64,000 nt of DNA from Vicinamibacteria bacterium. GTDB taxonomy: Bacteria; Acidobacteriota; Vicinamibacteria; Marinacidobacterales; Marinacidobacteraceae. The translations under genes and the position numbers were made by a program. Below the pieces are notes generated by a model. The model did not search any database. It was given only the letters and a program-made list of their open reading frames with translations, and had not been told where the DNA came from. The stretch lies in contig OY821641.1 in the NCBI GenBank assembly GCA_963555995.3, positions 832,001 through 896,000 on the forward strand, given 5' to 3'. This document shows positions 20,238 through 39,505 of the stretch, in pieces; the stretch's first letter is position 1; each line of letters starts with the position of its first letter.

Positions 20238-20286
20238 CCACCCTCATCGCGCGCGGGGCCGGATCCTGCCCCGCTCCCATGAGGAA

Positions 20287-20313
20287 ACCCCCGGCGGCCT
20301 GGCCGCCGGGGGT
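20287..20313 (-). terminator. GC-rich hairpin, probable terminator between the FecR/DUF6600 gene and nrdJ
   Basis: perfect inverted repeat ACCCCCGGCGGCC-T-GGCCGCCGGGGGT; only a short T run follows on the minus strand. Confidence 0.5.
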
Positions 20314-20336
20314 CCGCCGTGACGGCCGGAGCGCCT

Positions 20337-20520
20337 TAGCAGCCTGTGGCAAAACCCCCGCGGCATTCGACGGGCGATGCATCCCGGCTGAACCGCGCCT
20401 CTACGAGGCGCTCTGCGTTGCGTTTCGGTCGAATACACTCGGTTTTCCTCCCTCACGCGCCTTGTCAGCCGGGCGCCTCGCCCGTCTCGGTGCTCACGTG
20501 GGTTTCACCACAGGTTGTTA
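20337..20520 (-). mobile_element. MITE copy 3 (inverted)
   Basis: reverse complement of copy 1; its end supplies the TAA stop of the gene ending at 20518. Confidence 0.85.
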
Positions 20521-22686
20521 GTTGTTGTTCGGGCGTCGGCTGCCGCGGCTTCCCCCACTGCCGCCGCCGCCACGACTTACGGCGGCGCCGCCGCCGCCAC
20601 CGCCACCGCGGCTGACCGCGCTGCCGCCGCCGCTGGTACTCGACCCGCCACCCCGGCTGGCCGAAGCTCCGCTACTGCCGCCGAAACGGGAGAAACCGCT
20701 TGGCCGGCTTCGGGAACCCGCGCTCGGCCGGCTTCGCGAGCCCGCGCTCGGGCGGCTCCGCGAGCCCGCGCTCGGGCGGCTGCGGGAGCCCGCGCTGGGC
20801 CGGCTGCGGGAGGCGCCGCTGGGCCGGCTGCGGGAAGCGCCGCTGGGCCGGCTCCGGGAAGCCCCGCTGGGCCGGGCTCGGGAAGCCCCGCTGGGCCGGG
20901 CTCGGGAAGTTCCCGAGCGTCCGGTGGAAGTCGCCCCACTCCTGGGAGAGGCGGGCCGCACCGAGGAAGGCCGTCTGGCGCCGCTGTCGCCCGACCGTCC
21001 GCTGGCGCGCGGCCTGGGAGAGGTGGCGGGGCGATTCCCGGTCGTGGCGCGGCCGCGATTGGCCGACGGCCGTCCGGTTCGGCGTCCTGCCGTCGCCCGA
21101 CTGCTACCGGTAGCCCGGCGCGCGGCTGCCCGGGACCGGTCCGTTTCCGCGCTGCCGGCGCTCCCGTCCCGTCCTGCGACACCGCGGGACAGGATGGCGC
21201 GATCCCTTTCCGTCGCGTAGGACGACCGCGTACTGCGCGCGCGCGCGGCGCTCGTGGGAACGGCCACCCGCTGCGCCCGGGAAGTGCTGCGGGTGGAGCC
21301 GGCCGCGGCCCGGCGTGCGGTTGTCGGGGCTCGCGAGTTGGAGAGCCGCCGGGTGGTGGCCTTCGCCGACCGGGTCATGGCGGTTTCTCCGATCGCGCGT
21401 TGACGCAGACCGCGATCCAGTACCGCGCCTCCGGAAAGGACCTGGGCGTTTTCGACGTTGCGCAGGGTGGACGCCGCCAACCGGTTGCGCGAGGCGGGAC
21501 GCCCGATGGCGTCTCTACTGGTGAAACTCCACGCCTGCCGGTTCACGGACCCGCGTGGTACGGCTTTCCCGAGGACCTGTCCCCGACGGATTCGAGGGCG
21601 GTTTGCGTAGTACTGGTCACCCCAGCCGTAAGGACCGCCGTACCATCCGTGGAACGGATACACCGCATAGCCGTAGTAGCCGAGAGGAGACCAGCCGACC
21701 CAGTCGTATCCGTAGCTCCAGGAGACCCAGCCCGGGCCCCACACGGAACCCGGCAGCCAGTACCAGCCAAGGGGGCCGTGTCCCCACCGGCCGTAGTGAT
21801 ACGGAGCCCAACCCCAGGGGTCGTAGGAGATCCAGGTGATGCCGAACGGCGTGTGCGCCCATCGTCCGAGCCGGTAAGGCGCCCAGCCGGCGGTAACTGT
21901 CGGATACCAGACCCATCCCAGATGGACATCGTGGTGCCAGCGGCCATGTCCCTCGAGATCGGGAGCGTGCTCCCTGACTTCCTCGGGAAGTTCGTCGTAG
22001 TGCGTCTCCGCAGTGGTGACGAAGCGCCGCTGACGATCTTCGGCCCAGGCGAAGAAGCTGTCGTTACCAAGGTACTCCTCGGGCGGGGCCGGCGCCGTGC
22101 CTTCGGAAGCGACGGTCCGCTGACCGGACCCCACCAGCACCGAGCCCGACTCGGTGGATACGGTCGCGATGCCCGAGTAGACGACGAACTGCACCGTGCG
22201 GCCGTCTTCCAGAAGATCCGTTCGGTACTTACCCTCGCCCTGAGGGGAGAAGGTGCCGCCCGGTGTTTCCACGACCACGTCGGCATCGCCGCCGATCCAC
22301 ACGATGAGACTCCCGGTCCAGAACCCGAGCCGGTGCGGGCTGTCCCCTTCCACGTAGTCCAGCTTGGTTGCCTGGTCCATCCATGCCGTGACCCGGCCCG
22401 CGAAGCGCAGTTCGACCTGCCCGGGTTCCCGGGTCCAGATGCGGTCGCCGGGAAGGAAGGGGCTGCCCCTTTCCGCTTCGTGGGCGCCGAAATCGTCCGC
22501 CCGCTGGTGCCAGACATCGCCGTCGACGACGCTGAGATTCCCGTAGGTGTAGGACCGCCCGGTTTCCTCGTCGGACTGCGCGAGCGCCGCCGCGGAGTGG
22601 CCCAGGACGAGCAGCAGGCTCAGGATGCCTGCGTGCCGGAGGACCTTTTTTGGCCTTGGGTTTCGCCTGTTCGCTCTTTCGTGCAT
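20518..22686 (-). CDS. secreted FecR-like + DUF6600-type (Gly/Trp/Tyr-rich) protein with long Arg/Ser/Gly low-complexity tail
   Basis: signal peptide; GDRIWT..G.VEL FecR-like segment; GWAPYRLGRW, PWGWAPYHYGRW, WGPGWVSW; GGAGG SD before ATG 22686. Confidence 0.8.
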   Translation of the reverse strand: MHERANRRNPRPKKVLRHAGILSLLLVLGHSAAALAQSDEETGRSYTYGNLSVVDGDVWHQRADDFGAHEAERGSPFLPGDRIWTREPGQVELRFAGRVTAWMDQATKLDYVEGDSPHRLGFWTGSLIVWIGGDADVVVETPGGTFSPQGEGKYRTDLLEDGRTVQFVVYSGIATVSTESGSVLVGSGQRTVASEGTAPAPPEEYLGNDSFFAWAEDRQRRFVTTAETHYDELPEEVREHAPDLEGHGRWHHDVHLGWVWYPTVTAGWAPYRLGRWAHTPFGITWISYDPWGWAPYHYGRWGHGPLGWYWLPGSVWGPGWVSWSYGYDWVGWSPLGYYGYAVYPFHGWYGGPYGWGDQYYANRPRIRRGQVLGKAVPRGSVNRQAWSFTSRDAIGRPASRNRLAASTLRNVENAQVLSGGAVLDRGLRQRAIGETAMTRSAKATTRRLSNSRAPTTARRAAAGSTRSTSRAQRVAVPTSAARARSTRSSYATERDRAILSRGVAGRDGSAGSAETDRSRAAARRATGSSRATAGRRTGRPSANRGRATTGNRPATSPRPRASGRSGDSGARRPSSVRPASPRSGATSTGRSGTSRARPSGASRARPSGASRSRPSGASRSRPSGASRSRPSAGSRSRPSAGSRSRPSAGSRSRPSAGSRSRPSGFSRFGGSSGASASRGGGSSTSGGGSAVSRGGGGGGGAAVSRGGGGSGGSRGSRRPNNN
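20698..20913. repeat. coding tandem repeat, 9 x 24 bp (SRSRPSAG / SRARPSGA)
   Basis: 24-bp periodicity visible directly. Confidence 0.9.
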
Positions 22687-22721
22687 GGGCCACCTCCCCG
22701 AGGCTGCCACTTCCTGATGCC

Positions 22722-22736
22722 GCAATCCCTATGCCA
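22722..22736 (-). promoter_or_regulatory. sigma54 (-24/-12) promoter
   Basis: TGGCATAGGGATTGC matches TGGCA-N6-TTGC with exact spacing, about 35 nt upstream of ATG 22686. Confidence 0.7.
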
Positions 22737-22759
22737 GATTCCGCGCGACTGCCCCCGGG

Positions 22760-23176
22760 TCACCCGAGCCGGTCGAGGAACTCCGACGCCTGGAGCCGGG
22801 CGCGCGCCGCGCGGAACTTTCGCCAGGCCGGCCGGACGTCGCGGTCGCGATTGACCAGCCGCTCGAGCTTGCTGCCGTCGGGATCGTCTTCGAGCAGGGC
22901 TTCCAGCCGCCCCCGCATGTCTCCTTTCGGGAGGGACTCGACAAACGCGTCCTGCTCGCTCAGCGTGTCTTCCAGCCGGGGCTTCGGCACGGGGACGAAA
23001 CGGCCCCGGATGTCGGACTCCAACTGCCAGACGATTTCCTGCGTCGAGGGATCCTCGTGGTCTTCCGCGACGCTGACCATGCGGGAGGTGTCCCGGTCGT
23101 AGTAGTAGGTCCGTTCCGGGCCGTCGTCGACAAAGGCGGCGACCAGCGCCTCAAGCAGAGAAGGGTCGGTCTCCAC
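22760..23176 (-). CDS. UPF0158-family protein
   Basis: LEALVAAF..YYYDRDT, RFVPVP, FVESL..RLEALL, W..FR pattern; GTG start 23176 inferred. Confidence 0.7.
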   Translation of the reverse strand: METDPSLLEALVAAFVDDGPERTYYYDRDTSRMVSVAEDHEDPSTQEIVWQLESDIRGRFVPVPKPRLEDTLSEQDAFVESLPKGDMRGRLEALLEDDPDGSKLERLVNRDRDVRPAWRKFRAARARLQASEFLDRLG

Positions 23177-23295
23177 GGACTCGGAACCGTTGCAATGAAA
23201 ACTACGGGAGGGACGCCCCTCCGTGCGGGAGATTAAACGACAGACCCCGACCGCGCCAATCCCACCCCGCCGCAATCGTCCGATTCTGTGCGACT

Positions 23296-24279
23296 TCAGC
23301 GGCCCCGGCGACGCGTGGTGCGGGTCAGTTCGGGAGGATCGTTCGTGATCTGGAGCGTGTGGGTTTCGATGCCGCCCCCGCCCAACCGGACCCCCGCGAC
23401 CAGGGCGCCGTCAGTCACGCCGGCGGCGCAGAAGATCAGGCGCCGGCCGGGCGCCAATGCCTCCGTGGTCAGCACGCGCCCCACGTCCTCGACCCCGGTC
23501 TCCACGAGCCTCCGCTGCTCCGCTTCGTTCCGCACGAGGAGCTGCCCCAGCATTCCGCCGCCGAGGCACCGCAGCGCGGCCGCCGCAATCACGCCTTCCG
23601 GGGCGCCGCCCGATCCCATGGCCGCCTGAACTCCCGAATCCGGCATCGCGCTCAGAATTCCGGCGGAGAGGTCGCCGTCTCCGATCAGCCGCACCCGGGC
23701 GCCGGCGCGTCGCAGCCCGGCAATCAGCTCCTCGTGCCGGGGCCGCTCGAGCACGACCACTGTGATCTCGCTCGCGGGGAGGCCCTCGGCCTCGGCGATC
23801 GCGCCCACGTTGTGTTCGGGAGCGTGCTCGAGCCGGATGGCGTCCCCGAGGAGGTCCCGGCTGGCCGGACCCACCATGATCTTCTCCATGTAGACATCGG
23901 GCGCGGTGAGGAGCCCCCCGCGTTCCGAACCGGCGAGCACCGCGATGGCCCCGGGTCCGCCGGTGGCGCAGAGATTCGTCCCTTCCAGGGGGTCCACCGC
24001 GATGTCCAGTTCGGGGGCTCCTTCCCCGCCGCTGCCGAACCGCTCGCCACTCCACAACATGGGAGCCTGGTCCCGCTCGCCCTCGCCGATCACCACCCGC
24101 CCCCGGACCGGCACGGTGTCGAGGATCCGGCGCATGGCGGAGACCGCGACCTGATCCGAATGGCGGCGGTCTCCCAGGCCGATCGTGGGGGCGCAGGCGA
24201 CGGCCGCTTCCTCCACCGTGCGGACCAGGTGGGAGCCGGCGACGGCCAGCGGGCCGTCAGCCGTCGTCCCGCCGCTCAA
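23296..24279 (-). CDS. glpX: class II fructose-1,6-bisphosphatase
   Basis: VIGEGERDQAPML, DIAVDPLEGT, APDVYMEK, ERPRH, IGDGD, GGAPEGV; TTG start overlaps the upstream stop. Confidence 0.93.
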   Translation of the reverse strand: MSGGTTADGPLAVAGSHLVRTVEEAAVACAPTIGLGDRRHSDQVAVSAMRRILDTVPVRGRVVIGEGERDQAPMLWSGERFGSGGEGAPELDIAVDPLEGTNLCATGGPGAIAVLAGSERGGLLTAPDVYMEKIMVGPASRDLLGDAIRLEHAPEHNVGAIAEAEGLPASEITVVVLERPRHEELIAGLRRAGARVRLIGDGDLSAGILSAMPDSGVQAAMGSGGAPEGVIAAAALRCLGGGMLGQLLVRNEAEQRRLVETGVEDVGRVLTTEALAPGRRLIFCAAGVTDGALVAGVRLGGGGIETHTLQITNDPPELTRTTRRRGR

Positions 24280-25490
24280 TGTTCCTCCGGCGGCGGGAGG
24301 CTGACCCGGGTGGGGCGGTCCCGCCGGTAGCCCAGGGCGTAGTCGGCCTGCATCAGGGTGTGGATCTCCCGGGTTCCCTCGTAGATCACGGCGCCCTTGG
24401 AGTTCCGCCAGAAGCGCCCCACCGGATACTCGTCCGAATACCCGTAGGACCCGTGGATCTGGATGGCGTCCGATGCGGCCCTTTCGGAGGCGACCGTGGA
24501 GACCCACTTCGCCAGCGAGGTCTCGCGGGTGTTCCGGCGTCCGCGATTCTTCAGCTCGCCGGCGCGGAGCCACAACAGCCGGCTCACCTCGTAGTCGCGC
24601 TCCATGTTCGCGATCATCTGCTTGACGAGTTGGTGCCGGCCGATCTCCTGACCGAAGGTGGTGCGGGACCGCGCCCAGCGCGCGCTCTCGTCGCGGCAGG
24701 CGCGGATCAGTCCGGTGGCGCCGGCGGCGACCGTGTAGCGGCCCTGGTCGAGGGCGAACATGGCGATCTTGAAGCCCTCGCCCTCCTCCCCGAGCCGGTT
24801 CCCGGCCGGGACGCGGACGTCATGCATGCGGAACCAGCCGGTGTTTCCGGCGCGAATCCCCCATTTGTGGGTCATGTTTCCGGACTCGAAGCCAGGAAAG
24901 GAGCGCTCCACGATGAAGGCCGAGAGTCCCGAATGGTCCCGGCGAGCCCGCTTGTCGGGATCCGTCCAGGCGATCACGAGGAAGTTGTCGGCAATCTCGG
25001 CCAGGGAGATCCAGTGTTTTTCCCCGGTGAGCACGTAGTCGGAACCGTCGCGCCGCGCCGTGGCCCGGATCCCCACCGCGTCGCTTCCGGCGTCCGGTTC
25101 GGTAAGCCCGTAGGTGGCGATCTGCTTCCCTTCCGCCTGCGGCCGCAGGTAGCGGTCCTTCTGCGCCTCGCTGCCCCAGGCGAGGAGCGAGAGGGAGTTC
25201 AGACCGGCATGCACGGACATGATGACCCGCAGCGAGGTGTCGACGTACTCGAGTTCCTCGCAGGCGAGCCCGAGCGAGATGTAGTCGAGTCCGGCGCCGC
25301 CGTAGCGCTCGGGAACCGATATCCCCAGGATGCCGAGTTCTCCGAGTCCCGTCAGGATTTTGCGATCGAACACCTTGGCGGCATCGTTTTCGCGGATATG
25401 CGGCGCCACCTCGCGGGCGGCGAACTCGCGAACCAGCGACTCCGTCGCGCGGTGTTCCTCGGTCAGATCGAAGTTCAGACGCTCAGCCAA
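24276..25490 (-). CDS. acyl-CoA dehydrogenase
   Basis: YGLTEPDAGSDA, GEKHWIS, GEEGEGFKIAM, QIHGSYGY, IYEGTREI. Confidence 0.95.
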   Translation of the reverse strand: MAERLNFDLTEEHRATESLVREFAAREVAPHIRENDAAKVFDRKILTGLGELGILGISVPERYGGAGLDYISLGLACEELEYVDTSLRVIMSVHAGLNSLSLLAWGSEAQKDRYLRPQAEGKQIATYGLTEPDAGSDAVGIRATARRDGSDYVLTGEKHWISLAEIADNFLVIAWTDPDKRARRDHSGLSAFIVERSFPGFESGNMTHKWGIRAGNTGWFRMHDVRVPAGNRLGEEGEGFKIAMFALDQGRYTVAAGATGLIRACRDESARWARSRTTFGQEIGRHQLVKQMIANMERDYEVSRLLWLRAGELKNRGRRNTRETSLAKWVSTVASERAASDAIQIHGSYGYSDEYPVGRFWRNSKGAVIYEGTREIHTLMQADYALGYRRDRPTRVSLPPPEEH

Positions 25491-25613
25491 CGTTCCCTTG
25501 CCTTTCCGGTCGTGCCGGTTCCTTCCCTGTCGCCTGCGTCCCGCCGGCGCGGAGCGCGGAGTATACGGCGCGGCTTCGGGTCGTTTCCCGGTGCGGCGCG
25601 GGGGCCGGGACGA

Positions 25614-27209
25614 TCAGATTCCGCTCGCCAGGGCGGCCGCCGCCGCTTCGGCCTCGGCCTTGCGTTTGCTGGGGCCGACCCCCCTTCCGAGGGCGCGGCG
25701 GCCCGCGAGCACTTCCATGACAAAGGTCTTTTCGTGCTCCGGGCCGCTCTCCGAGATGAGTCGGTACACGGGGAGGCGACCCTCTTTCTTCACGAGCGCC
25801 TCCTGCAGGGTCCCCTTCGGATTTTCGGTCGCGGCGACGGCCGTTGGGCTCTTCCCGGCCGCTCCTCGTCGTGGTCGGCTCCGCCTGCGGGCGGACCGGC
25901 GTTCGAGCCGTTCGAGAGCCCGCCGCGCGGCGTCCTTCTCGGCCTCCTTGAGGCCTCGCCCAACCCCGGTTTCGACGAGTCCATCGGCCAGCCGCAGGGT
26001 CACGGACACCGTCCCGTCGCTCCGCGAGCTGCGCGGTCCGCGTTTGGGCTCGTACCTGGGAGTCTCCTTGCCCGCCTGGGCGAGGCGGTTCTGGAGCAGC
26101 GTCTTGGGGTCGAGGAGTTCCAGGTCGGGATCCCGGAGCTCCTCGAGGGCGGTTGCGAACGGCCGGCCCAGGGCCCGGCGGGCGGCCTCCAGGCGGCCGT
26201 CCAGGTAGAGCGCCCCCATCACGGCCTCCGCGGTGGCCGCGGCGTCGTCCGCGTCCCCGAGTGACCAGTGTTCGTTCAGCGTGCGGGTGAACTCCCGGCT
26301 TTCGAGCCGCATCCGGGCGAGGGTCATCCTCCCCTCGTCCCACTCGGGGAATTGGTCATGAAGCGCCTCGGCCAGCACCAGGTGAAGGACATCCCGCCCG
26401 AGGAAGCGCAGTGCGGGCCGGTTCACCGATCGGGCCGCTCCCGGAGGTCTCGGGGACCCGAGGGACGGGCGCCGCCGCCCCCGCGTTCGCCGCTTTCTGC
26501 CCCGGCGGTTCCTGGAGGCGCGTTCCCGGCCCGCGTCACCCGGGTCGAGCGCCGCGGCCAGGATTCCGGGATCGGCGAAGGTGTATCCGAGGGCGCGTTC
26601 GACCCTCTTGCGCAACAGGAGGAGACGGCGGGCGAACCGGATGCCGAGCGGGCCGATGGATCGCAGTCCGCTGCCGGCTCGACGGACCCATCCCGGAACG
26701 CCTTCCGGCGGCTTCAGCCGGAGCCGCTGCAGCTTCTGCCTGAAGGCCACGCCCAGGACGCCGCGCGCCGCCGGCATCCCGCCGTCGAGATAGGCGGCCC
26801 CGAGGACGGCTTCGAAGACGTTGGCGAGGATGCGGTCGGAAGATCGGACTTCTTCACCGGCGTTGCGCCCGCGGCCGACCCGAATGCCCTCGTCCAGCGA
26901 GAGGGCGCGGGCCGCCGCGGCCAGCGACTGGTTGCTCACCAGTTCCGACTTGGTCTCCTGCCGCCGTTGTCCGTCCCAGTTCGGCCGCTGGAAATGCATG
27001 GACTCGGTCACCACGAGTCCGAGCGCCGCGTCGCCGACGAATTCCAGCCTTTCGTAGTCCGCGACCGCGTGGTCGTTTCGATAGGAGCCGTGCGTCAGGG
27101 CTTCCTCGAGAAGCTCGAGGTCCTGGAAGCGGTACCCCAGATCCCGGGCGAACTCGAGGACCGGCCGGTGTTCGGATGCCGGCGCCCGCCGTCTTCGTCT
27201 GCGGGCCAT
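25614..27209 (-). CDS. rnc: ribonuclease III with tandem RNase III domains (second degenerate) and two dsRBDs
   Basis: domain 1: LGYRF..ALTH, ERLEFVGD, FEAVLGAAYLDGG; domain 2: LGYTF, ALRFLGR, AEAVMGALYLDG; dsRBDs: DPKTLLQ..KEAEKDAA and NPKGTLQE..GPEH..SKRKAEAEAA. Confidence 0.88.
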   Translation of the reverse strand: MARRRRRRAPASEHRPVLEFARDLGYRFQDLELLEEALTHGSYRNDHAVADYERLEFVGDAALGLVVTESMHFQRPNWDGQRRQETKSELVSNQSLAAAARALSLDEGIRVGRGRNAGEEVRSSDRILANVFEAVLGAAYLDGGMPAARGVLGVAFRQKLQRLRLKPPEGVPGWVRRAGSGLRSIGPLGIRFARRLLLLRKRVERALGYTFADPGILAAALDPGDAGRERASRNRRGRKRRTRGRRRPSLGSPRPPGAARSVNRPALRFLGRDVLHLVLAEALHDQFPEWDEGRMTLARMRLESREFTRTLNEHWSLGDADDAAATAEAVMGALYLDGRLEAARRALGRPFATALEELRDPDLELLDPKTLLQNRLAQAGKETPRYEPKRGPRSSRSDGTVSVTLRLADGLVETGVGRGLKEAEKDAARRALERLERRSARRRSRPRRGAAGKSPTAVAATENPKGTLQEALVKKEGRLPVYRLISESGPEHEKTFVMEVLAGRRALGRGVGPSKRKAEAEAAAAALASGI

Positions 27210-27210
27210 C

Positions 27211-29457
27211 TCAGTCCACCCGAACCAGGACCATCGTCAGATCGTCCGAGTGGGTCTCGGTGCCGGTGAACTCGAGGACCGCGTCTTCGACCGTCCGCTG
27301 GAGGTCCGCCGGGGTGAGGGCCGCTCCCTCTTCGAGGAGCCGCATCAGCCGTTCCTCGCCGAACATGTCGGATTCCGCGTTCATGGCCTCCGAGACGCCG
27401 TCGGTGAAGAAGAGCCAGGTCTCGCCTCCCCGGAGGCGTTCCGAGCGCTCTTCCAGGATCTCGTCGAAGACCGGCCCGGGATCGAGGGCCAGCCCGAGCC
27501 CAGGGGGAGCGAGCGCTTCCGAGCGGGGCCAGTGGCCGTCCCGCTGGACCAGATGCAGAAGCGGACTGTGGCCGGCCCGCGCAAACGTGACCAGCCGCTC
27601 CGCGGAATCGAATACCGCATAGGTGATGGTGATGAAGGTCCGTGAATCGAGCGCGGTGTGCAGGACCTGGTTCGCCTCGACCAGCACCTTGCGGGGGGAC
27701 TCGTGGATGCGGCTCAGGGCGAGCATCAGTCCCTTGAGTTCGGCCATGATGAACGCCGCCCGCGTCCCGGTGCCGGAGACATCGGCAATCACCACCCCGA
27801 GCCGATTCGGTCCGAGCGGGATCAGGTCGTAGTAGTCGCCCCCAACCTCGGTGGCGGGGCGGCAGACGGCGGAGACCGCGAATCCCGGCACCGAGACGGA
27901 TCCCTCGAGAGGGAGAAGGCGCGACTGGGACTGCCGCGCGGTCTCCATTTCCTGTTCGAGTACCGCCGCGCGCCGGAGACGCCCCATGTCGTCGGCGATC
28001 TTGGCGGTCATGATGTTGAACGAGCTCGCGAGCTCGCCGAGCTGATCGGGTGAGGCGACGCGTACCTGGTGGCCGAAATTCCCGCCGCGGACGAGCTCGG
28101 TCCCCTGGCTCAGTGCTTCGACGGACCGGGTGATCGAGCGCGCGAGCCGGAGTCCGGCGGAGAACGCGACGCACTCGATGAGCACGAACACGATGCCGAG
28201 CCCGCCGAGCACCAGGAGCAGACCGCTCCGCCAGTCCGGGTTGCTGATTGCCACGGACTCCGCGAGTCCGCCGGTGGTCCCCTGGATCAGGTGAATCGGG
28301 GCGAAGCCGATGGCCACCACGACCGTGCCTCCCTCCATCCCGGGACCCCAGGGGACGGCCTCGAGCAGCAGGGGTTCGTCCCAGTCGATCGTGAAGCGGT
28401 CCTCGTCCGTTCGCGACAGCGGGGCCGGAGCCGGTGGTTCCTCGTTCTGGTCTCCGAGATAGAGCGCCCAGACGGTCCGGACGATCAGGTCCTCCTCCCG
28501 CGCGCTCGCTTCGAGGAGCGGCGCGAGCGGCGCCAGAACCACCGCCAGGCGGTTCCCCCGGAGCCCGGGAAAGACCGCGCCGAACCATTCGGTGTCCTCC
28601 ATCTGGACCACGCCCTCGTAGGGCGCGAGCGCCCATTCCGGCACCGGATCGGACTCGCGAAGCGGTCCTCCGGCATCCGAACCGGTCAGTCGGACAATGC
28701 GCCCCTCCTCGATCTCAAGGTACCAGGCTGCCGCCCCGGGGGCGAACGGAGCGACCCGCGCCGCTGCCCCCCGGAGGCCGCGGGCGATCTCTGCGGGGTC
28801 CGCATCCGGTGAAATCTCAAGCAGGGTCTGCTGGGCGGCGGAAGCGAACGCGGTGCCCCGGGCCGCCAGGTTCGCCTGGAAGGCATAGGAGCCGAACAAC
28901 CCGAGCACCACGTAGAAGGCGAGCAGGAAGAAGGACGTGAGGAGCAGGACCGGCAGGAGCCCGACGAAGAGGTAGGAAACCGCCAGCTTCCGGCGGACGG
29001 GGTAGAGGAGCCAGCCGAGGAGATCGCGCCCGAAGTAGACGAGCACCGCGCCCAGGGTGATGACGAAGACCATCCACGCGTCCGCCGACCAGGAAGGGGG
29101 CAGCGCGCCTGCCGAGGAGAGGGAGGCGACGGCCCCGACCCCGAGCAGGAATCGGCCGGGCCACGAGCCGGTGAGCGCCTTTGCCGCGCGTTCCAGACCC
29201 CTCACGAGGGACCTGGGATGGGCGGACGCCGCCGGAGGCGGAACGGAAGGGGAGGCCGGTCTGGCGGGTCGCTCCGCGGACTTTGCGGGGTCTTGGTTGG
29301 AGATGTTCGGGAGTGCGGGTGTCTGAGGGACGGCCGTTGGCCGGATTGCCGGGTCCGGGGCGCTTCCCGGCGGGGTCCGGTTCGGCGTCCCCGGGGTTGC
29401 GCGCGCTCGCACTCGAAACCCGAGGGCCCGGCGCCGTTCGCCGGGCGGAGGATCCAC
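27211..29457 (-). CDS. membrane HAMP + SpoIIE/PP2C protein phosphatase (RsbU-like); real start probably downstream of 29457
   Basis: TM helices, HAMP (DQLGELASSFN), EVGGDYYD, IADVSG, FTDGVSEA, DDLT. Confidence 0.9.
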   Translation of the reverse strand: MDPPPGERRRALGFRVRARATPGTPNRTPPGSAPDPAIRPTAVPQTPALPNISNQDPAKSAERPARPASPSVPPPAASAHPRSLVRGLERAAKALTGSWPGRFLLGVGAVASLSSAGALPPSWSADAWMVFVITLGAVLVYFGRDLLGWLLYPVRRKLAVSYLFVGLLPVLLLTSFFLLAFYVVLGLFGSYAFQANLAARGTAFASAAQQTLLEISPDADPAEIARGLRGAAARVAPFAPGAAAWYLEIEEGRIVRLTGSDAGGPLRESDPVPEWALAPYEGVVQMEDTEWFGAVFPGLRGNRLAVVLAPLAPLLEASAREEDLIVRTVWALYLGDQNEEPPAPAPLSRTDEDRFTIDWDEPLLLEAVPWGPGMEGGTVVVAIGFAPIHLIQGTTGGLAESVAISNPDWRSGLLLVLGGLGIVFVLIECVAFSAGLRLARSITRSVEALSQGTELVRGGNFGHQVRVASPDQLGELASSFNIMTAKIADDMGRLRRAAVLEQEMETARQSQSRLLPLEGSVSVPGFAVSAVCRPATEVGGDYYDLIPLGPNRLGVVIADVSGTGTRAAFIMAELKGLMLALSRIHESPRKVLVEANQVLHTALDSRTFITITYAVFDSAERLVTFARAGHSPLLHLVQRDGHWPRSEALAPPGLGLALDPGPVFDEILEERSERLRGGETWLFFTDGVSEAMNAESDMFGEERLMRLLEEGAALTPADLQRTVEDAVLEFTGTETHSDDLTMVLVRVD

Positions 29458-29647
29458 CGGAGCGCGGTACGGCGCCGAGACACCGGGTCTGGCGGCGGTT
29501 CTGACGGGCAGGATGCGGCCGACCGGCCAGTTCCGCCAGGCTAGGCCCCGCCTGGAAATGGCCCGGTTACCGCAACGCGGATCGGAAGCGCCGGCGAGCG
29601 CCGGTCCGCCGAAGACGGGCCGACACCCCGAGTGCTCGGAGGAAGTC

Positions 29648-30014
29648 TAGCAGCCTGTGGTGGAACCCCCGTGAGCGCCGAGAGCGGTGAGGCACCCCGC
29701 TGACGAGGCGCGCAACAGCCTGTGGTGGAACTCGCGTGAGCACCGAGAACGGCGAGGCGCCCGGCTGACAAGGCGCGTGAGGGAGGAATACCGGGCGTAT
29801 TCCGACCGAAGCGCAACGATGAGGACCGCGTAGCGGGCCGGTTCAGCCGGGATGCATCGCCGTTCGAATGCCGTGGGAGTTTCACTGCGGGCTGTTCAAG
29901 GAGGAATACCGAGTGTATTCCGACCGAAACGCAACGCCGAGCGCCGCACAGCGGCGGGTTCCGCGGGGATGCATCGCCGCTCGAACGCCGCGAGAGTTTT
30001 GCCACCGGTTGCTG
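29648..30014 (+). mobile_element. nested MITE: full copy (29715-29895) inside a second copy (29650-29713 plus 29898-30012)
   Basis: outer left part stops at ..GAGGCGCG and resumes at AGGAGGAATAC after a complete inner element. Confidence 0.8.
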
Positions 30015-35455: not shown

Positions 35456-35555
35456 GCTAACGGGACGCCTTCCTCGCTTCGGGGTCTGGAACGGTCGTGA
35501 GAGGCGATCTTCGCCGTTCGCCTCGGGATTCGCCGTCTGGGAGAGCGCGGCATGT

Positions 35556-35740
35556 TAACAGCCTGTGGCAAAACCCACGCGGCGTTCGACGGGCGATGCA
35601 TCCCGGCTGAACCGCGCCTCTGCGAGGCGCTCTGCGTTGCGTTTCGGTCGGAATACACCCGGTATTCCTCCCTCACGCGCCTTGTCAGCCGGGCGCCTCG
35701 CCCGTCTCGGCGCTCACGTGGGTTTCACCACAGGCTGTTA
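35556..35740 (-). mobile_element. MITE copy (inverted) between divergent metK and the nucleotidyltransferase gene
   Basis: TIRs and TA flanks; nearly identical to copy 1. Confidence 0.85.
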
Positions 35741-35808: not shown

Positions 35809-36942
35809 GTGACGGCAGGCGCCCCCCGGCCCACCGCCGTCATCCTCCTGGCCGGCAAGTCGCAGCGGACCTGGCCGCTAACCGCCGACTTTCCCAAACC
35901 GCTCCTGCCGCTCTGGGGCCGCCCGCTCACCGAGCGCGTGCTCGACCAGTTGCGCGGGGTCGTGGACACCGCGGTGCTGGTGGTCGGGTATCGGAAGGAG
36001 CGCATCCTCGACCACTTCGGGACGCGCTACGCGGGCATCCGCCTCGTTCCGGTCGAGCAGCAGAGCGCCCGCGGGACGGCCGACGCGCTGCGGGTCGCGG
36101 CCGCCGCCGTCCGCGGACCGGTCCTCGTTCTCAACGGCGACGACTTCTACCACCACGACGACCTGGCGCGGGTGAGCGAGCACCCGACGGCGATCCTCTG
36201 CCAGGAGGCCAGCGATCCCTGGAACCGGGCGACGGTCACCGTGACCGCAGACGACTGGCTGGTGGACGTCCAGGAGAAGCCTCCCGCGGCCCGGCCCTGG
36301 GAACTCAGCAGCGTGGGGGCCTATTCGCTCAGGCGGGAAGACCTCGACCACCTTGGCGAAGTCCGGGAGAGCGTGCGCGGCGAACTCGAGCTCCCGGACC
36401 TCATTCGGATCCTGGCGCGCTCTCCCGGGGTGCGCGCGGTGCGCGCCCGGCGTCCCTGGATCCCGTTGACCTATCCGTGGGACGTCATCGGACGGATCGT
36501 GCCCCTCTTCGGCGGGAATCCTCCGGGCGAAGGAGCCCGAGCGCTCGGCTTCGAGACCAGCACGGGGGAGATGGGCGAAGGGGCCGTCTTCGTCGGGGAG
36601 GGAGCATCCGTTCATCCCGACGCCCGCCTGCTCGGACCGGTGGAGCTCGGCGCCGGCGCCCGCATCGCCGCCGGGGCGGTGGTGGAACGGGCGGTGCTGA
36701 TGGAGGGGGCGAGCGTGGGGGCCGGAGCGATCGTCCGGGACAGCGTGCTTGGCCGCGGCGCCTCGGTTGGAGAGGGCGCCCGCCTCCGGTCGGGCCCGGT
36801 CGAGCGGATCGAGGTGCTCGGCCACACCGCACGCGTCGGAGTTCCCGTCGTTGGGGCCTGCCTGGGAGCGGGCGCCGGGGTCGCCGCGGGATCCGAGACG
36901 CCTCCCGGCACTCTGCTGGGCCCGGGCGAGGGCTTCGGTTAG
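35809..36942 (+). CDS. NDP-sugar synthase / GlmU-like nucleotidyltransferase with hexapeptide-repeat C-terminus
   Basis: ILLAGKSQRTWPLT..PKPLLP, GTADAL, LNGDD, EKP, RGELELPD, left-handed beta-helix repeats. Confidence 0.85.
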   Translation: MTAGAPRPTAVILLAGKSQRTWPLTADFPKPLLPLWGRPLTERVLDQLRGVVDTAVLVVGYRKERILDHFGTRYAGIRLVPVEQQSARGTADALRVAAAAVRGPVLVLNGDDFYHHDDLARVSEHPTAILCQEASDPWNRATVTVTADDWLVDVQEKPPAARPWELSSVGAYSLRREDLDHLGEVRESVRGELELPDLIRILARSPGVRAVRARRPWIPLTYPWDVIGRIVPLFGGNPPGEGARALGFETSTGEMGEGAVFVGEGASVHPDARLLGPVELGAGARIAAGAVVERAVLMEGASVGAGAIVRDSVLGRGASVGEGARLRSGPVERIEVLGHTARVGVPVVGACLGAGAGVAAGSETPPGTLLGPGEGFG

Positions 36943-39209
36943 CGACGCTGCAAGAGCAGGAAGACGGAAGCGAGCCCGAAGAAGAGGTTCGGCGACCACG
37001 CCGCCAGCACCGGGTCGAGCAGTTCCGCGTTCCCGATGGAGCGGAAGAACTGGGTGGCGACCAGATAGACGATCGCGATCGCGAAGGCGATGGCGGCGCT
37101 CGCCCAGGCGCTCTGATTCGTCCTCCGGAACGCGAACGGGAGCCCGATGAGCACCGTGACCAGCGAGGCGAAGGGCAGGGAGGTCTTGGTCTCCAGGGCC
37201 ACGTGGAGCACCGGATCGCGGTGACCGGCCGCCTCGATGGTTTCGATGCGTTCCTCGAGGTCGCGATAGGGGAGGTGGTCGGTCGCCAGGTCCTCCCTGA
37301 GGAGCGCATCGGGTACGGAGACGTCCGGAATCTCCTGGACGGCGAACGGTTCGGCGGCCCGGCCGCCGTGGAGGTCGCGCTCCCAGCCTCCGATCCCGGT
37401 CCAGGTCGCTTCCGCCGCCGACCAGTGGGCGGAAGCCGCATAGCTGCGGGCGGCAAGCGAGGCGCTGTCCGGACCGAGCCGGAACACCGAGAGTCCGCTG
37501 AGGACCAGGTTGTCCGCGTCGAAGTCGTCGTAGTGGTAGATCTGGCCCTCGGGTCCCATCCCCCAGTGCCGCTCCAGCGGATTGACGGTGCGCCGGGCCT
37601 CGCCGCGGATGCGGGCGCCCGTATCCTCGGCTTCGGGCGCCGTCCGGGGGATCAGCCGTTCCTGCAGCCCGAAGCCCGCGCCGCTCACGAGCAGTCCGGT
37701 GGCGAGCGCCGGGACCACGAGGCGCGCGCGGCTGATCCCCCCGGCGAGGAACGCGGTCACCTCGTTGTGCCGGCTCAGGAGGCCGAAGGTGACGAGCGTC
37801 GCCGTGAGGGTCGCGAGCGGCAGCATCTGGGCCGTGAACGCGGGAATCGAGAGACCCAGGTAGCGAAGCACGGTGGTGGTGGCGATGTCCCGCTCGAAGG
37901 CGTCGCCGATTACCGCGTTCAGCAGGCCGATCAGCTCCCACGAGAGCAGCGCCGCCAGCGCGATGACGAGGAACGTGAGGTAGCGGGTGACGACGTAGCG
38001 GTCGAGGATCGTGGGCAGTCCCGGCGGGCGCCAGCGGCGTACGGCCGAACGGCGGCGGGGGACGAACCGCCGGAGCCGGCCGAGGAAGCGGCGGACCGCC
38101 TCCAGGGGGTGCAGCTCGCGGGAAGCCAGCGCCAGCAGGACGACGCCGGCGGCCACGGTCACGATGTTGGCCCCCCACATGGCGATCCAGGGCGACAACT
38201 CCTCCGCCGCTGCGAGCTGCTCGCCGAACATGTTCGGGGCGTACCAGGCGAGGATCACGAGGATCGCCACGGCGAACGATCCGGCGCGCGTCGGTCCCGC
38301 CGACGGGCGGATCCCGATGCCCAGGCCGAGCAGTCCGAAGGCGAGACAGGCGAAGGGAAAGGCGAACTTCTTGTGGATCTCGACCAGGTAGATCGGGTGG
38401 TCGGTGCCCTCGTAGGCGGCCACCAGGTCCGGCAGCCGCATGGCGCGGGCGCTGCGGCTCGGACTCGGCGTCTCCGGGCCGAACACCTCCTCGGCATCGA
38501 GCGGGAGGCGGATCCGTTCCGCGCGCTGGATGCGGTACTGCCCCGGATCGTCGAGCCCGGCGTTGTGGACCTCCACGCCGGTGAGTTCGAGGAACGCCAG
38601 ACGCTCCGCGGGGACGGTCACCAGCCGGCCGCGGTCGGCGACGAAGATGGTCGGTTCGTCGGCGCGCGCGGTGTCGGCGAGAAAGACACGCCTCCAGCCG
38701 TCCTCGCCCGGAGGCACGGCTCCCACGAGCAGGACCCGGCCGTCGAGGAGCTCGTCGTAGAACATGCGAGGCTCGATCTCGGTGCGGAGCCGGGAGCTCA
38801 GGAGTTCGTCTCTCAGTTCGACGAACCGCTGGTTCGCCGGCGGGACGACCTCCAGCATCAGCAGCAGGCACAGGCCGAAGGCAGCGCCCGCCGCGGTCCC
38901 GATCGGGACGAGGAGACGCCAGGGAGAGATCCCGCCGGCCCGCATCGCGATCAGCTCGTGTCCGCTGGAGAGCCGGTTCAGCGCCAGCAGGATCCCGAGC
39001 AGCAGGGCGCTCGGGACGGCCACGGCGAGGAGCGCCGGAATCAACTGGGCGAAGGCCAGCCCCACGGTTTCCGGGTTCGCGCCCTGGGTGACGATCAACT
39101 CGATGTTGACGATCAGTTCGTTCAGCAGCAGCGCGAACAGGAAGACGCCGGTCCCGAGGAATACGCCGGGGGCGATGAGCCGGAGGATGTAGCGGCTGAG
39201 GAGACCCAC
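36939..39209 (-). CDS. LPS export ABC transporter permease, LptF-LptG fusion
   Basis: two tandem LptF/G units (LSRYILR..RLSSGHELIAMRAGG..PFACL; ILDRYV..LSRHNEVTAFLAGG..LAAWSPN); GTG start 39209. Confidence 0.9.
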   Translation of the reverse strand: MGLLSRYILRLIAPGVFLGTGVFLFALLLNELIVNIELIVTQGANPETVGLAFAQLIPALLAVAVPSALLLGILLALNRLSSGHELIAMRAGGISPWRLLVPIGTAAGAAFGLCLLLMLEVVPPANQRFVELRDELLSSRLRTEIEPRMFYDELLDGRVLLVGAVPPGEDGWRRVFLADTARADEPTIFVADRGRLVTVPAERLAFLELTGVEVHNAGLDDPGQYRIQRAERIRLPLDAEEVFGPETPSPSRSARAMRLPDLVAAYEGTDHPIYLVEIHKKFAFPFACLAFGLLGLGIGIRPSAGPTRAGSFAVAILVILAWYAPNMFGEQLAAAEELSPWIAMWGANIVTVAAGVVLLALASRELHPLEAVRRFLGRLRRFVPRRRSAVRRWRPPGLPTILDRYVVTRYLTFLVIALAALLSWELIGLLNAVIGDAFERDIATTTVLRYLGLSIPAFTAQMLPLATLTATLVTFGLLSRHNEVTAFLAGGISRARLVVPALATGLLVSGAGFGLQERLIPRTAPEAEDTGARIRGEARRTVNPLERHWGMGPEGQIYHYDDFDADNLVLSGLSVFRLGPDSASLAARSYAASAHWSAAEATWTGIGGWERDLHGGRAAEPFAVQEIPDVSVPDALLREDLATDHLPYRDLEERIETIEAAGHRDPVLHVALETKTSLPFASLVTVLIGLPFAFRRTNQSAWASAAIAFAIAIVYLVATQFFRSIGNAELLDPVLAAWSPNLFFGLASVFLLLQRR

Positions 39210-39240
39210 GGCGGACCCCCCGGATTCTAGGAAACGGCCC

Positions 39241-39290
39241 GGAACGCCAATTTCCAGACCGGCACGCGCGGCGCTCCGCGCCGCGCACCG
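39241..39290. repeat. degenerate REP-like copy in the lptFG/smc gap
   Basis: GGAACGCCAATTTCCAGACCGGCACGCGCGGCGCTCCGCG matches the 55268 unit. Confidence 0.7.
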
Positions 39291-39505
39291 CACATCGCCC
39301 TGAACCCGGATGGCGTACCAGCACGGTGCTCGATCCATTCCGGCCCCGGACGGTTTCCCGCGCAGGGACCCGGATCGCGGACCCACCGCATCTTGGGGGT
39401 GCGTCGCCCTCAAGGCACAACATGTTGTGGACGGCCCCGGCGACCGCCTACAATACAGTCGGCGTTCGGCGGCGCCGCAGCCACAATCTTCAGGGTGACC
39501 AGCGA

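Follow-up and report, generated by a model that had tools for sequence, protein, structure and literature searches.

Does an RNase III that carries two nuclease domains in one chain cut both strands of its substrate, or only one? The question is raised by a gene of a Vicinamibacteria bacterium (GCA_963555995.3, contig OY821641.1; GTDB lineage Acidobacteriota; Vicinamibacteria; Marinacidobacterales; Marinacidobacteraceae). The window, that is the whole stretch of DNA that was analysed, comprises 64,000 nt at positions 832,001-896,000 of the forward strand; window coordinates are used throughout, and the family of the source genome is called the own family. Reviews give tandem RNase III domains as a mark of the eukaryotic Drosha and Dicer, and describe the bacterial enzyme as a homodimer with symmetric halves (PMC3867540, PMC8708148). 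The gene found here encodes a single protein of 531 aa with two RNase III domains (RIII) followed by two double-stranded RNA-binding domains (dsRBDs), which an earlier note on this DNA, made from the sequence alone, had read as a Drosha/Dicer-like enzyme with one active and one dead domain. The tandem enzyme is a real, family-wide and apparently undescribed RNase III variant.

The length of the open reading frame (ORF) and every motif on which that note relied (ERLEFVGD, NVFEA, PALRFLGR, LGYTF, EGRMT and EAVMGALYLDG) were found in place. Profile searches agreed with the proposed domain order: Pfam gave two RNase III (Ribonuclease_3) and two dsrm stretches, and TIGR02191 (NCBIfam) matched with 242 bits over three stretches, corresponding to model positions 2-143 (RIII), 37-219 (RIII and dsRBD) and 149-217 (dsRBD). 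Domain 2 by itself scored 36.3 bits with PF00636 (cut-off 27) and was 33% identical to domain 1 (E 1e-8). The protein, which is strongly basic (net +32), does not have the layout of an ordinary Rnc, namely one RIII and one dsRBD in about 220-260 aa. The ATG of the gene lies 1 nt past the stop codon of the upstream gene, and no promoter-like site was found in window 22500-30000.

A search for homologues gave 75 proteins, comprising the one encoded in the window, 72 from the own family (49-91% identity, most full length) and 2 ordinary Rnc. The few named homologues were entered as 'hypothetical protein' of Acidobacteria metagenome-assembled genomes. One contig of run X1, which may be the source sample, spans the whole tandem gene with 2 differences; together with the 72 relatives this ruled out a mis-assembly or an erroneous gene fusion. 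In the sponge metagenome run X6, contigs from related strains tile the gene in overlapping pieces.

For the residue pattern, 73 sequences were aligned, namely the query and the 72 own-family members, the self match and the 2 ordinary Rnc being left out. Numbering was mapped by motif onto an Rnc of a sister family. E. coli residue numbers and the names of the RNA-binding motifs (RBMs) follow PMC2275086, PMC9291653, PMC1540722, PMC5027489, PMC8708148, PMC9508840, PMC6800513, PMC6212723, PMC3074117, PMC4838370 and PMC12936278. By this mapping E53, E56, D60, N130 and E133 of domain 1 are equivalent to E. coli E38, E41, D45, D114 and E117. The three acids E41, D45 and E117 were invariant in 125/125 ordinary Rnc proteins, and tolerated no mutation in an E. 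coli mutational scan as reported in PMC10037077. Domain 1 retains E53 and E56 in 71/71 rows reaching them, D60 in 72/72 and E133 in every row reaching it, and so carries both the signature and the E41/D45/E117 set of the E. coli-type RNase III class. In domain 2 the E41 and D45 positions are occupied by R268 and R272 in 73/73 sequences, so that the E to R and D to R changes which the earlier note had seen in one protein are common to all 72 relatives. The two arginines are written with three and four kinds of codon, respectively, at 15 loci, a synonymous variation, and D273 and E328 of domain 2 are also invariant (73/73).

RBM3 was divided between the domains in the opposite sense. Among the ordinary Rnc proteins E65 occurs in 121/125 and G66 in 125/125; domain 1 has neither residue (0/72 rows), and domain 2 has both in 72/73, the exception (P0074) being a fragment with an apparently frameshifted tail. 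E38 shows the reverse pattern, kept in domain 1 and lost in domain 2. In Aquifex structures E38 and E65 reportedly form a pair contributed by opposite subunits. If so, one end of the RNA-binding valley would be complete, with the acids of domain 1 and the RBM3 of domain 2, and the other end would be dismantled on both sides. Domain 2 has further lost the His of the THxS motif, and its RBM4 loop is 13 residues shorter than that of domain 1.

The mean pairwise ratio of nonsynonymous to synonymous substitution rates (dN/dS), calculated from 66 non-independent pairs among 12 genomes of one genus, was 0.06 for RIII-1, 0.14 for RIII-2, 0.15 for dsRBD1 and 0.04 for dsRBD2, and 0.36-0.68 for the linkers. 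The Arg-rich insertion of domain 2, which varies from 16 to 71 aa across relatives and is on average 30% basic, had a value of 0.55. Judged by its sequence, domain 2 has lost its metal ligands, and as an RNase III domain it is conserved and under purifying selection. Random decay was ruled out by the invariance of R268 and R272, the several Arg codons and the low dN/dS of the domain, and the reading of the Arg signature as conserved rather than decaying was upheld.

The same invariance of R268, R272, D273 and E328, with Arg kept across several codons, would also fit a domain 2 that is alive, in which the two arginines replace the metal ions and form, with E328, an altered second site, the two strands being cut at different rates. 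Salt bridges or phosphate binding account for the conservation of Arg equally well, and we know of no RNase III that cuts without two bound metals. Two-metal catalysis, with E41, D45 and E117 as the metal ligands, is described for the family (PMC3867540, PMC9291653), and we regard a working second site as very unlikely.

One claim of the earlier note was not borne out. It had proposed that Asn in place of D114 weakens the remaining site in domain 1. Asn occupies this position in 15/15 single-domain Rnc of the sister families, in 20/125 ordinary Rnc and in Drosha RIIIa, and D114 alone among the active-site positions tolerated mutation in the E. coli scan (PMC10037077). Since Asn is ancestral in the order, a weakening effect is unsupported and D114N was rejected as such a change. 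The note had also overlooked that domain 1 reciprocally lost E65 and G66, that the gene replaced the only rnc at its own locus and that the pre-16S stem is remodelled.

The distribution of the gene identifies it. Among 41 related genomes, the tandem frame was found in 25/25 of the own family, and a single ordinary Rnc in 15/16 of two sister families; the remaining sister-family genome, in which no Rnc was found, is 73% complete. Two RNase III matches and nothing further were found in 27/27 own-family genomes within a set of 151 genomes of the class, and the other 124 gave one match (121 genomes), two weak matches (1) or none (2). A set of 250 other genomes of the phylum, 23 of which are common to the class set and one of which (G175, unpublished) is counted in this tally only, gave one match in 247, two separate genes in 1 and none in 2. 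Neither a second ordinary rnc, whose presence the earlier note had left to be checked, nor a Mini-III was found in the source genome, which is 93% complete. Because the tandem gene is the sole copy family-wide and lies next to the HAMP/SpoIIE gene found upstream in sister-family loci too, we conclude that it is the housekeeping rnc of the own family, rebuilt in place at the base of the family. The positions of all features are collected in Table 1.

Table 1. Features of the tandem RNase III gene and of related elements (window coordinates except where stated)
Feature	Position or members	Strand	Remarks
Tandem RNase III gene	25614..27209	-	531 aa, RIII-RIII-dsRBD-dsRBD; sole RNase III found in genome
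HAMP/SpoIIE phosphatase gene, upstream	27211..29457	-	Marks ancestral rnc position of the order; at 15/15 sister-family and 15/15 own-family loci
RNase III domain 1, predicted active	26724..27161	-	Residues 17-162; E53, E56, D60, N130, E133 and THxS motif
Intact signature ERLEFVGD	27030..27053	-	Residues 53-60, domain 1
Domain 1 RBM3 helix	26949..26972	-	Residues 80-87; E65 and G66 lost, S69 replaced by invariant Q84
RNase III domain 2, predicted catalytically dead	26124..26612	-	Residues 200-362; THxS His lost
Arg-rich insertion in domain 2	26421..26540	-	Residues 224-263; low confidence in model
Dead signature PALRFLGR	26394..26417	-	Residues 265-272; E41 to R268, D45 to R272, E38 lost
Domain 2 RBM3 helix	26307..26336	-	Residues 292-301; E292, G293, T296, R299 (E65, G66, S69, R72) kept
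E328, E117 equivalent in domain 2	26226..26228	-	Kept in 73/73
dsRBD 1, diverged	25896..26114	-	Residues 366-438; native short linker to domain 2; RBM1 K369, Q373 kept
dsRBD 2, canonical	25623..25826	-	Residues 462-529; flexible linker; K465, Q469, H492 kept
Bulged leader segment of pre-16S stem, this genome	G000:C1 2958873-2958863	-	Outside window; locus L032; family loci L114-L135, L159-L186
Second tandem family members	P0112, P0083, P0232, P0079, P0233, P0234, P0235		Degenerate second domain

A stand-alone dead partner or a split form of the gene was also sought. There were 22 matches to short proteins, among which no split gene was shown: 6 were close own-family matches, of which the four examined (P0269, P0270, P0271 and P0274) start within domain 2 and look like fragments, and 16 were weaker (31-39%) and had the length and domains of ordinary Rnc. 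A search of 28 own-family genomes for Cas9, whose RNAs need RNase III, gave no match above the cut-off and 3 weak partial matches. Two further observations concern the proteins themselves. In one genus of the own family (P0054, P0055, P0057 and locus L026) dsRBD2 has recently been copied, giving a third dsRBD. In the two sister families the ordinary Rnc (loci L002-L016) carries Ser in place of the usually conserved signature R39 (NESMEF/NESLEF) and Lys at position 68.

An AlphaFold2 model of the 531-aa protein was built from a 64-row alignment and searched against 48,161 solved chains. The mean predicted local distance difference test score was 79.4 and the predicted TM-score 0.66; both nuclease domains scored mostly 82-97, and confidence was low for the N-terminus, for the Arg-rich loop and for the dsRBD linker. 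The best structural matches were Drosha and Dicers. Residues 11-360, comprising both nuclease domains, matched Giardia Dicer (2ffl) over 291 aligned residues (4.0 A, Z 21.2), and both nuclease domains together with dsRBD1 matched DCL1 (7ele; 330 aligned, 4.0 A, Z 21.3) and Dicer-1 (8dfv; 358 aligned, 4.0 A, Z 17.9). The top Drosha match had a Z of 25.6 with a root mean square deviation of 12.5 A, probably because the mobile dsRBD2 was also taken in. In the model, and in the model only, the two domains thus pack within one chain as in Dicer, in line with the intramolecular packing that had been predicted from the domain order.

Beyond the architecture, the residue pattern, the selection on both domains, the sole-copy status and the ancestral rnc locus, which were observed directly, sequence and model together suggest that the protein is probably a single-chain pseudodimer with one two-metal site, located in domain 1, with domain 2 as a positioning partner and the dsRBDs as clamps. 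The two nuclease domains would be packed together as in Drosha and Dicer, domain 2 being the non-catalytic partner that completes the RNA-binding valley and supplies the RBM3 helix (E292, G293 and T296) lost from domain 1. R268 and R272 may stand in for two Mg2+ ions, either holding the uncut strand or pairing with E328, and the two dsRBDs would restore the 2+2 composition of the normal homodimer. Since only domain 1 keeps the metal-binding acids, one strand would likely be cut per binding event, and to break both strands the enzyme would have to let go and bind again the other way round. Each of the two RNase III sites is reported to act on its own, and heterodimers that retain a single site are capable of nicking dsRNA (PMC3867540).

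Domain 1 taken alone keeps the ordinary fold in the model (3o2r, Z 19.4, 1.6 A over 143 residues), and its interface residues are invariant. Two chains could then dimerise by way of domain 1 and cut both strands in the ordinary manner, with domain 2 as an appended scaffold or regulator. The loss of E65 would be survivable, since the E. coli E38A/E65A/Q165A enzyme is reported still to cleave (PMC9291653). Such a homodimer would lack E65 and G66 in both subunits, and most E65 changes were very deleterious in the E. coli scan (PMC10037077); it would also leave the conserved signature and RBM3 helices of domain 2 without a partner, and the model pairs the two domains inside one chain. We therefore consider pairing through domain 1 unlikely.

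In the single-chain pseudodimer, the loss of the THxS His and of part of the RBM4 loop from domain 2 would make the enzyme further asymmetric, and it likely prefers lopsided substrates. The pre-16S processing stem of the own family may be such a substrate. The rRNA operon is linked (16S-tRNA-Ile-tRNA-Ala-23S-5S), and unlinked rRNA genes were thereby ruled out as an explanation. Outside the own family, a leader motif TTTGAAAACT(A/G) pairs in register with a spacer motif (C/T)AGTTTTGA at 9-11 of 11 positions in 37/37 genomes, nearly always within a helix of about 24-35 bp. These were 9/9 genomes of the sister families and 28/28 from 13 other families of the class (34 sought, of which 4 lacked a 16S match and another 2 were partial). 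In 14/14 genomes of the own family these 11 nt (about 13 in one genus) are missing from the 3' arm between retained flanks, the leader motif has drifted, and the core has 3-7 of 11 positions paired, with the helix broken at once. The predicted result is a bulge on one strand, flanked by an outer helix (about 8 bp) and an inner one (21-25 bp), and the deletion of 11-13 nt from the 3' arm would thus leave the core unpaired on one side. The mean pairing probability of the bulged segment was 0.00-0.53 in the own family versus 0.80-0.90 in the sister families. All these counts are motif-anchored; an initial stem scan was not clearly above shuffles in the GC-rich own family.

The paired core reaches further than the class. 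Two Bacillaceae genomes have the same core, and in 2/8 of their operons the 3' arm starts at +68. The mapped RNase III site of B. subtilis on this arm is given as 67 nt past the 16S end (PMC4838370); the species differ, and the proximity is only suggestive. The 23S stem comprises 13 bp in the own family and is similarly short in the sister families, where the partner arm was mislocated in several genomes.

A broken pre-16S core in 14/14 genomes would also fit if the protein were mainly a non-catalytic or barely active binder of dsRNA, like chloroplast RNC1, with other nucleases maturing the rRNA. The net charge of +32 is in keeping with a binder, and RNase III is described as dispensable in most bacteria (PMC8708148). 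Such a role does not account for the E38 equivalent and the three essential acids of domain 1, which are invariant in all rows reaching them, for the dN/dS of 0.06 of this domain, or for the 21-25-bp inner 16S stem and the 13-bp 23S stem, which remain conserved. A mere binder is in our view improbable.

The origin of the tandem gene is reflected in its parts. Domain 1 and dsRBD2 form a conserved pair, with 35% and 44% mean identity to sister-family Rnc, and domain 2 and dsRBD1, which retain a native linker between them, form a diverged pair with 29% and 30%. The invariant R83 of domain 1 matches a Lys of 14/15 sister-family Rnc, a residue found there in 1/125 other Rnc; as this basic residue is typical of the order, the match points to descent from the order's own rnc gene. 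In a tree of 140 columns each domain formed one clade across the own family, and neither the deeper placement nor a horizontal origin of one of the domains was settled. The approximately unbiased (AU) test rejected neither a clade of domains 1 and 2 (p-AU 0.51) nor one that also includes sister-family Rnc (p-AU 0.33). The order RIII-RIII-dsRBD-dsRBD could have come about by a nested insertion or through two partial duplications, and each single step occurs elsewhere: RIII-dsRBD-dsRBD in P0082, P0091 and P0097, and RIII-RIII-dsRBD in the second tandem family described below. The view that the architecture is not a simple head-to-tail duplication held, as true head-to-tail forms (P0077) look different. 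Adaptive change and a neutral division of labour after duplication both stand as readings of this history.

Other tandem forms were found in a search of 1.84 billion representatives, of which the best 150 of 30,421 matches were listed, and in a follow-up search. Among the matches listed, a second tandem family comprised at least 7 clusters of 435-443 aa with the order RIII-RIII-dsRBD. Its domain 2 has lost E41 in 7/7 and E117 in 5/7, and its domain 1 keeps E41, D45 and E117 in 6/7. It groups with its own single-domain relatives (Shimodaira-Hasegawa-like approximate likelihood ratio test 98), and a clade with the own family was rejected in a quick tree with long branches (p-AU 0.03); the second family appears to have arisen independently. 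Single proteins showed further arrangements: P0077 is a head-to-tail tandem with both signatures intact, P0123 a head-to-tail tandem with E117 lost in copy 2, P0085 and P0227 have a dead-first RIII-RIII-dsRBD order, and P0081 is a three-domain form.

A broader reading can be built on the single-chain pseudodimer. From sequence and model it is conceivable, at a little under an even chance, that a natural single-chain dsRNA nickase replaced the housekeeping RNase III throughout the own family and co-evolved with the stem, and that the Drosha/Dicer layout was reached at least twice in bacteria with the second site silenced each time. Under this tentative reading a stem core common to organisms from Bacillaceae through Acidobacteriota would have been traded for a one-sided bulge of one helical turn.

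Several points weigh against the single-chain nickase. The reciprocity of the two domains is incomplete, domain 2 having no THxS His and an RBM4 loop shortened by 13 residues, and D44 of one subunit is reported to work with H27 of the other (PMC6212723), the His that domain 2 has lost. E328 is kept in 73/73, though a dead site would not need it, and the domain 2 of the second tandem family keeps E65 in only 2/7. AlphaFold was trained on Dicer and Drosha, so that the predicted packing may be partly a learned likeness. With regard to the stem, the bulged segment of this genome still pairs in an alternative fold, with a mean probability of 0.53 (about half the time), the outer helix shows a single compensatory position, in one genus, and the 23S stems show no contrast comparable to that of the pre-16S stem. 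Enzyme and stem changed on one branch, so that their coincidence is a single event; the change in the stem fits a lost rRNA cleavage as well as adaptation, and one event cannot prove co-evolution.

Three other observations were made in the window. One ORF at 36939-39413 (-) has two LptF/LptG domains and is an apparent LptF-LptG fusion. A FecR/DUF6600 protein at 20518-22725 (-) terminates in a long tail of low-complexity Ser/Arg/Gly sequence, in which short peptides are repeated in tandem. Similar overlapping-ORF translations in three intergenic regions, at about 20280-20500, 29730-29950 and 35460-35680, suggest a dispersed repeat element.

A literature search on bacterial tandem RNase III, on inactive or nicking two-domain forms and on Acidobacteria with RNase III and sponge found no description of the family, subscription journals for the most part, and supplements, which may hold domain-architecture tables, lying outside its scope. 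If the nickase reading is true, a bacterial family living on a single-chain enzyme with one site would show that housekeeping RNA processing can do without coupled double-strand cutting, and would reveal a route from a homodimer to an asymmetric pseudodimer in which the tasks of the subunits are visibly divided. The tandem enzyme may offer a model, small and soluble, of how active and dead RNase III are paired in the trypanosome editosome, and the altered pre-16S stem would be a ready cognate substrate, which opens enzyme-substrate co-evolution to test. A strand-selective dsRNA nickase might also be of use as a reagent.

Compared with known systems, the tandem gene is closest to bacterial class 1 RNase III (E. 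coli Rnc, Aquifex aeolicus RNase III; TIGR02191). It is a direct orthologue at the rnc locus of the order, as the sole copy and the shared upstream gene indicate, and has the same RIII and dsRBD folds, the same catalytic acids in domain 1, and two RIII and two dsRBDs per functional unit. However, Rnc is a homodimer with two sites, whereas the tandem enzyme is one chain with one predicted active site, and divides RBM3 and the catalytic acids between its two domains. Both the sequence and the model argue against a class 1 homodimer with two equal sites that leaves 2-nt 3' overhangs.

With Drosha and Dicer the tandem enzyme shares two RIII in one chain followed by a dsRBD and, in the model, an intramolecular pseudodimer. 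Drosha and Dicer are described as having two catalytic sites (PMC3867540), whereas E41R and D45R in all 73 sequences predict a non-catalytic second site here. They also have PAZ, platform or helicase parts; in the tandem enzyme PAZ/platform, helicase and long N-terminal parts gave no Pfam match, and the 531-aa chain has no room for them. As the tandem enzyme appears to be derived from the order's own Rnc, its likeness to Drosha and Dicer would be convergent.

Pairs of an active and a non-catalytic RNase III, to which the two domains appear similar in sequence and model, are found in the trypanosome editosome as KREN1/KREPB8, KREN2/KREPB7 and KREN3/KREPB6. They are proposed to cut only one strand (PMC9508840, PMC12936278). 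KREN and KREPB are two chains with a U1-like zinc finger in a guide-RNA editing complex, whereas the tandem enzyme is one chain with dsRBDs, encoded by a bacterial housekeeping gene. Chloroplast RNC1 has RNase III domains in tandem, both reported as silent (PMC3867540); with catalytic residues lost in both domains it has no active site and aids group II intron splicing, unlike the tandem enzyme, whose domain 1 is intact with invariant acids. Heterodimers of E. coli RNase III engineered to have one active subunit can nick dsRNA (Conrad 2002; Meng and Nicholson 2008, as cited in PMC3867540). These are artificial and otherwise symmetric, whereas the tandem enzyme is natural, fixed and further asymmetric, with one predicted site. 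From its sequence and predicted structure, our verdict is that the tandem enzyme has the build of Drosha and would act in the manner of the editosome's active-plus-dead pairs, and belongs to neither family.

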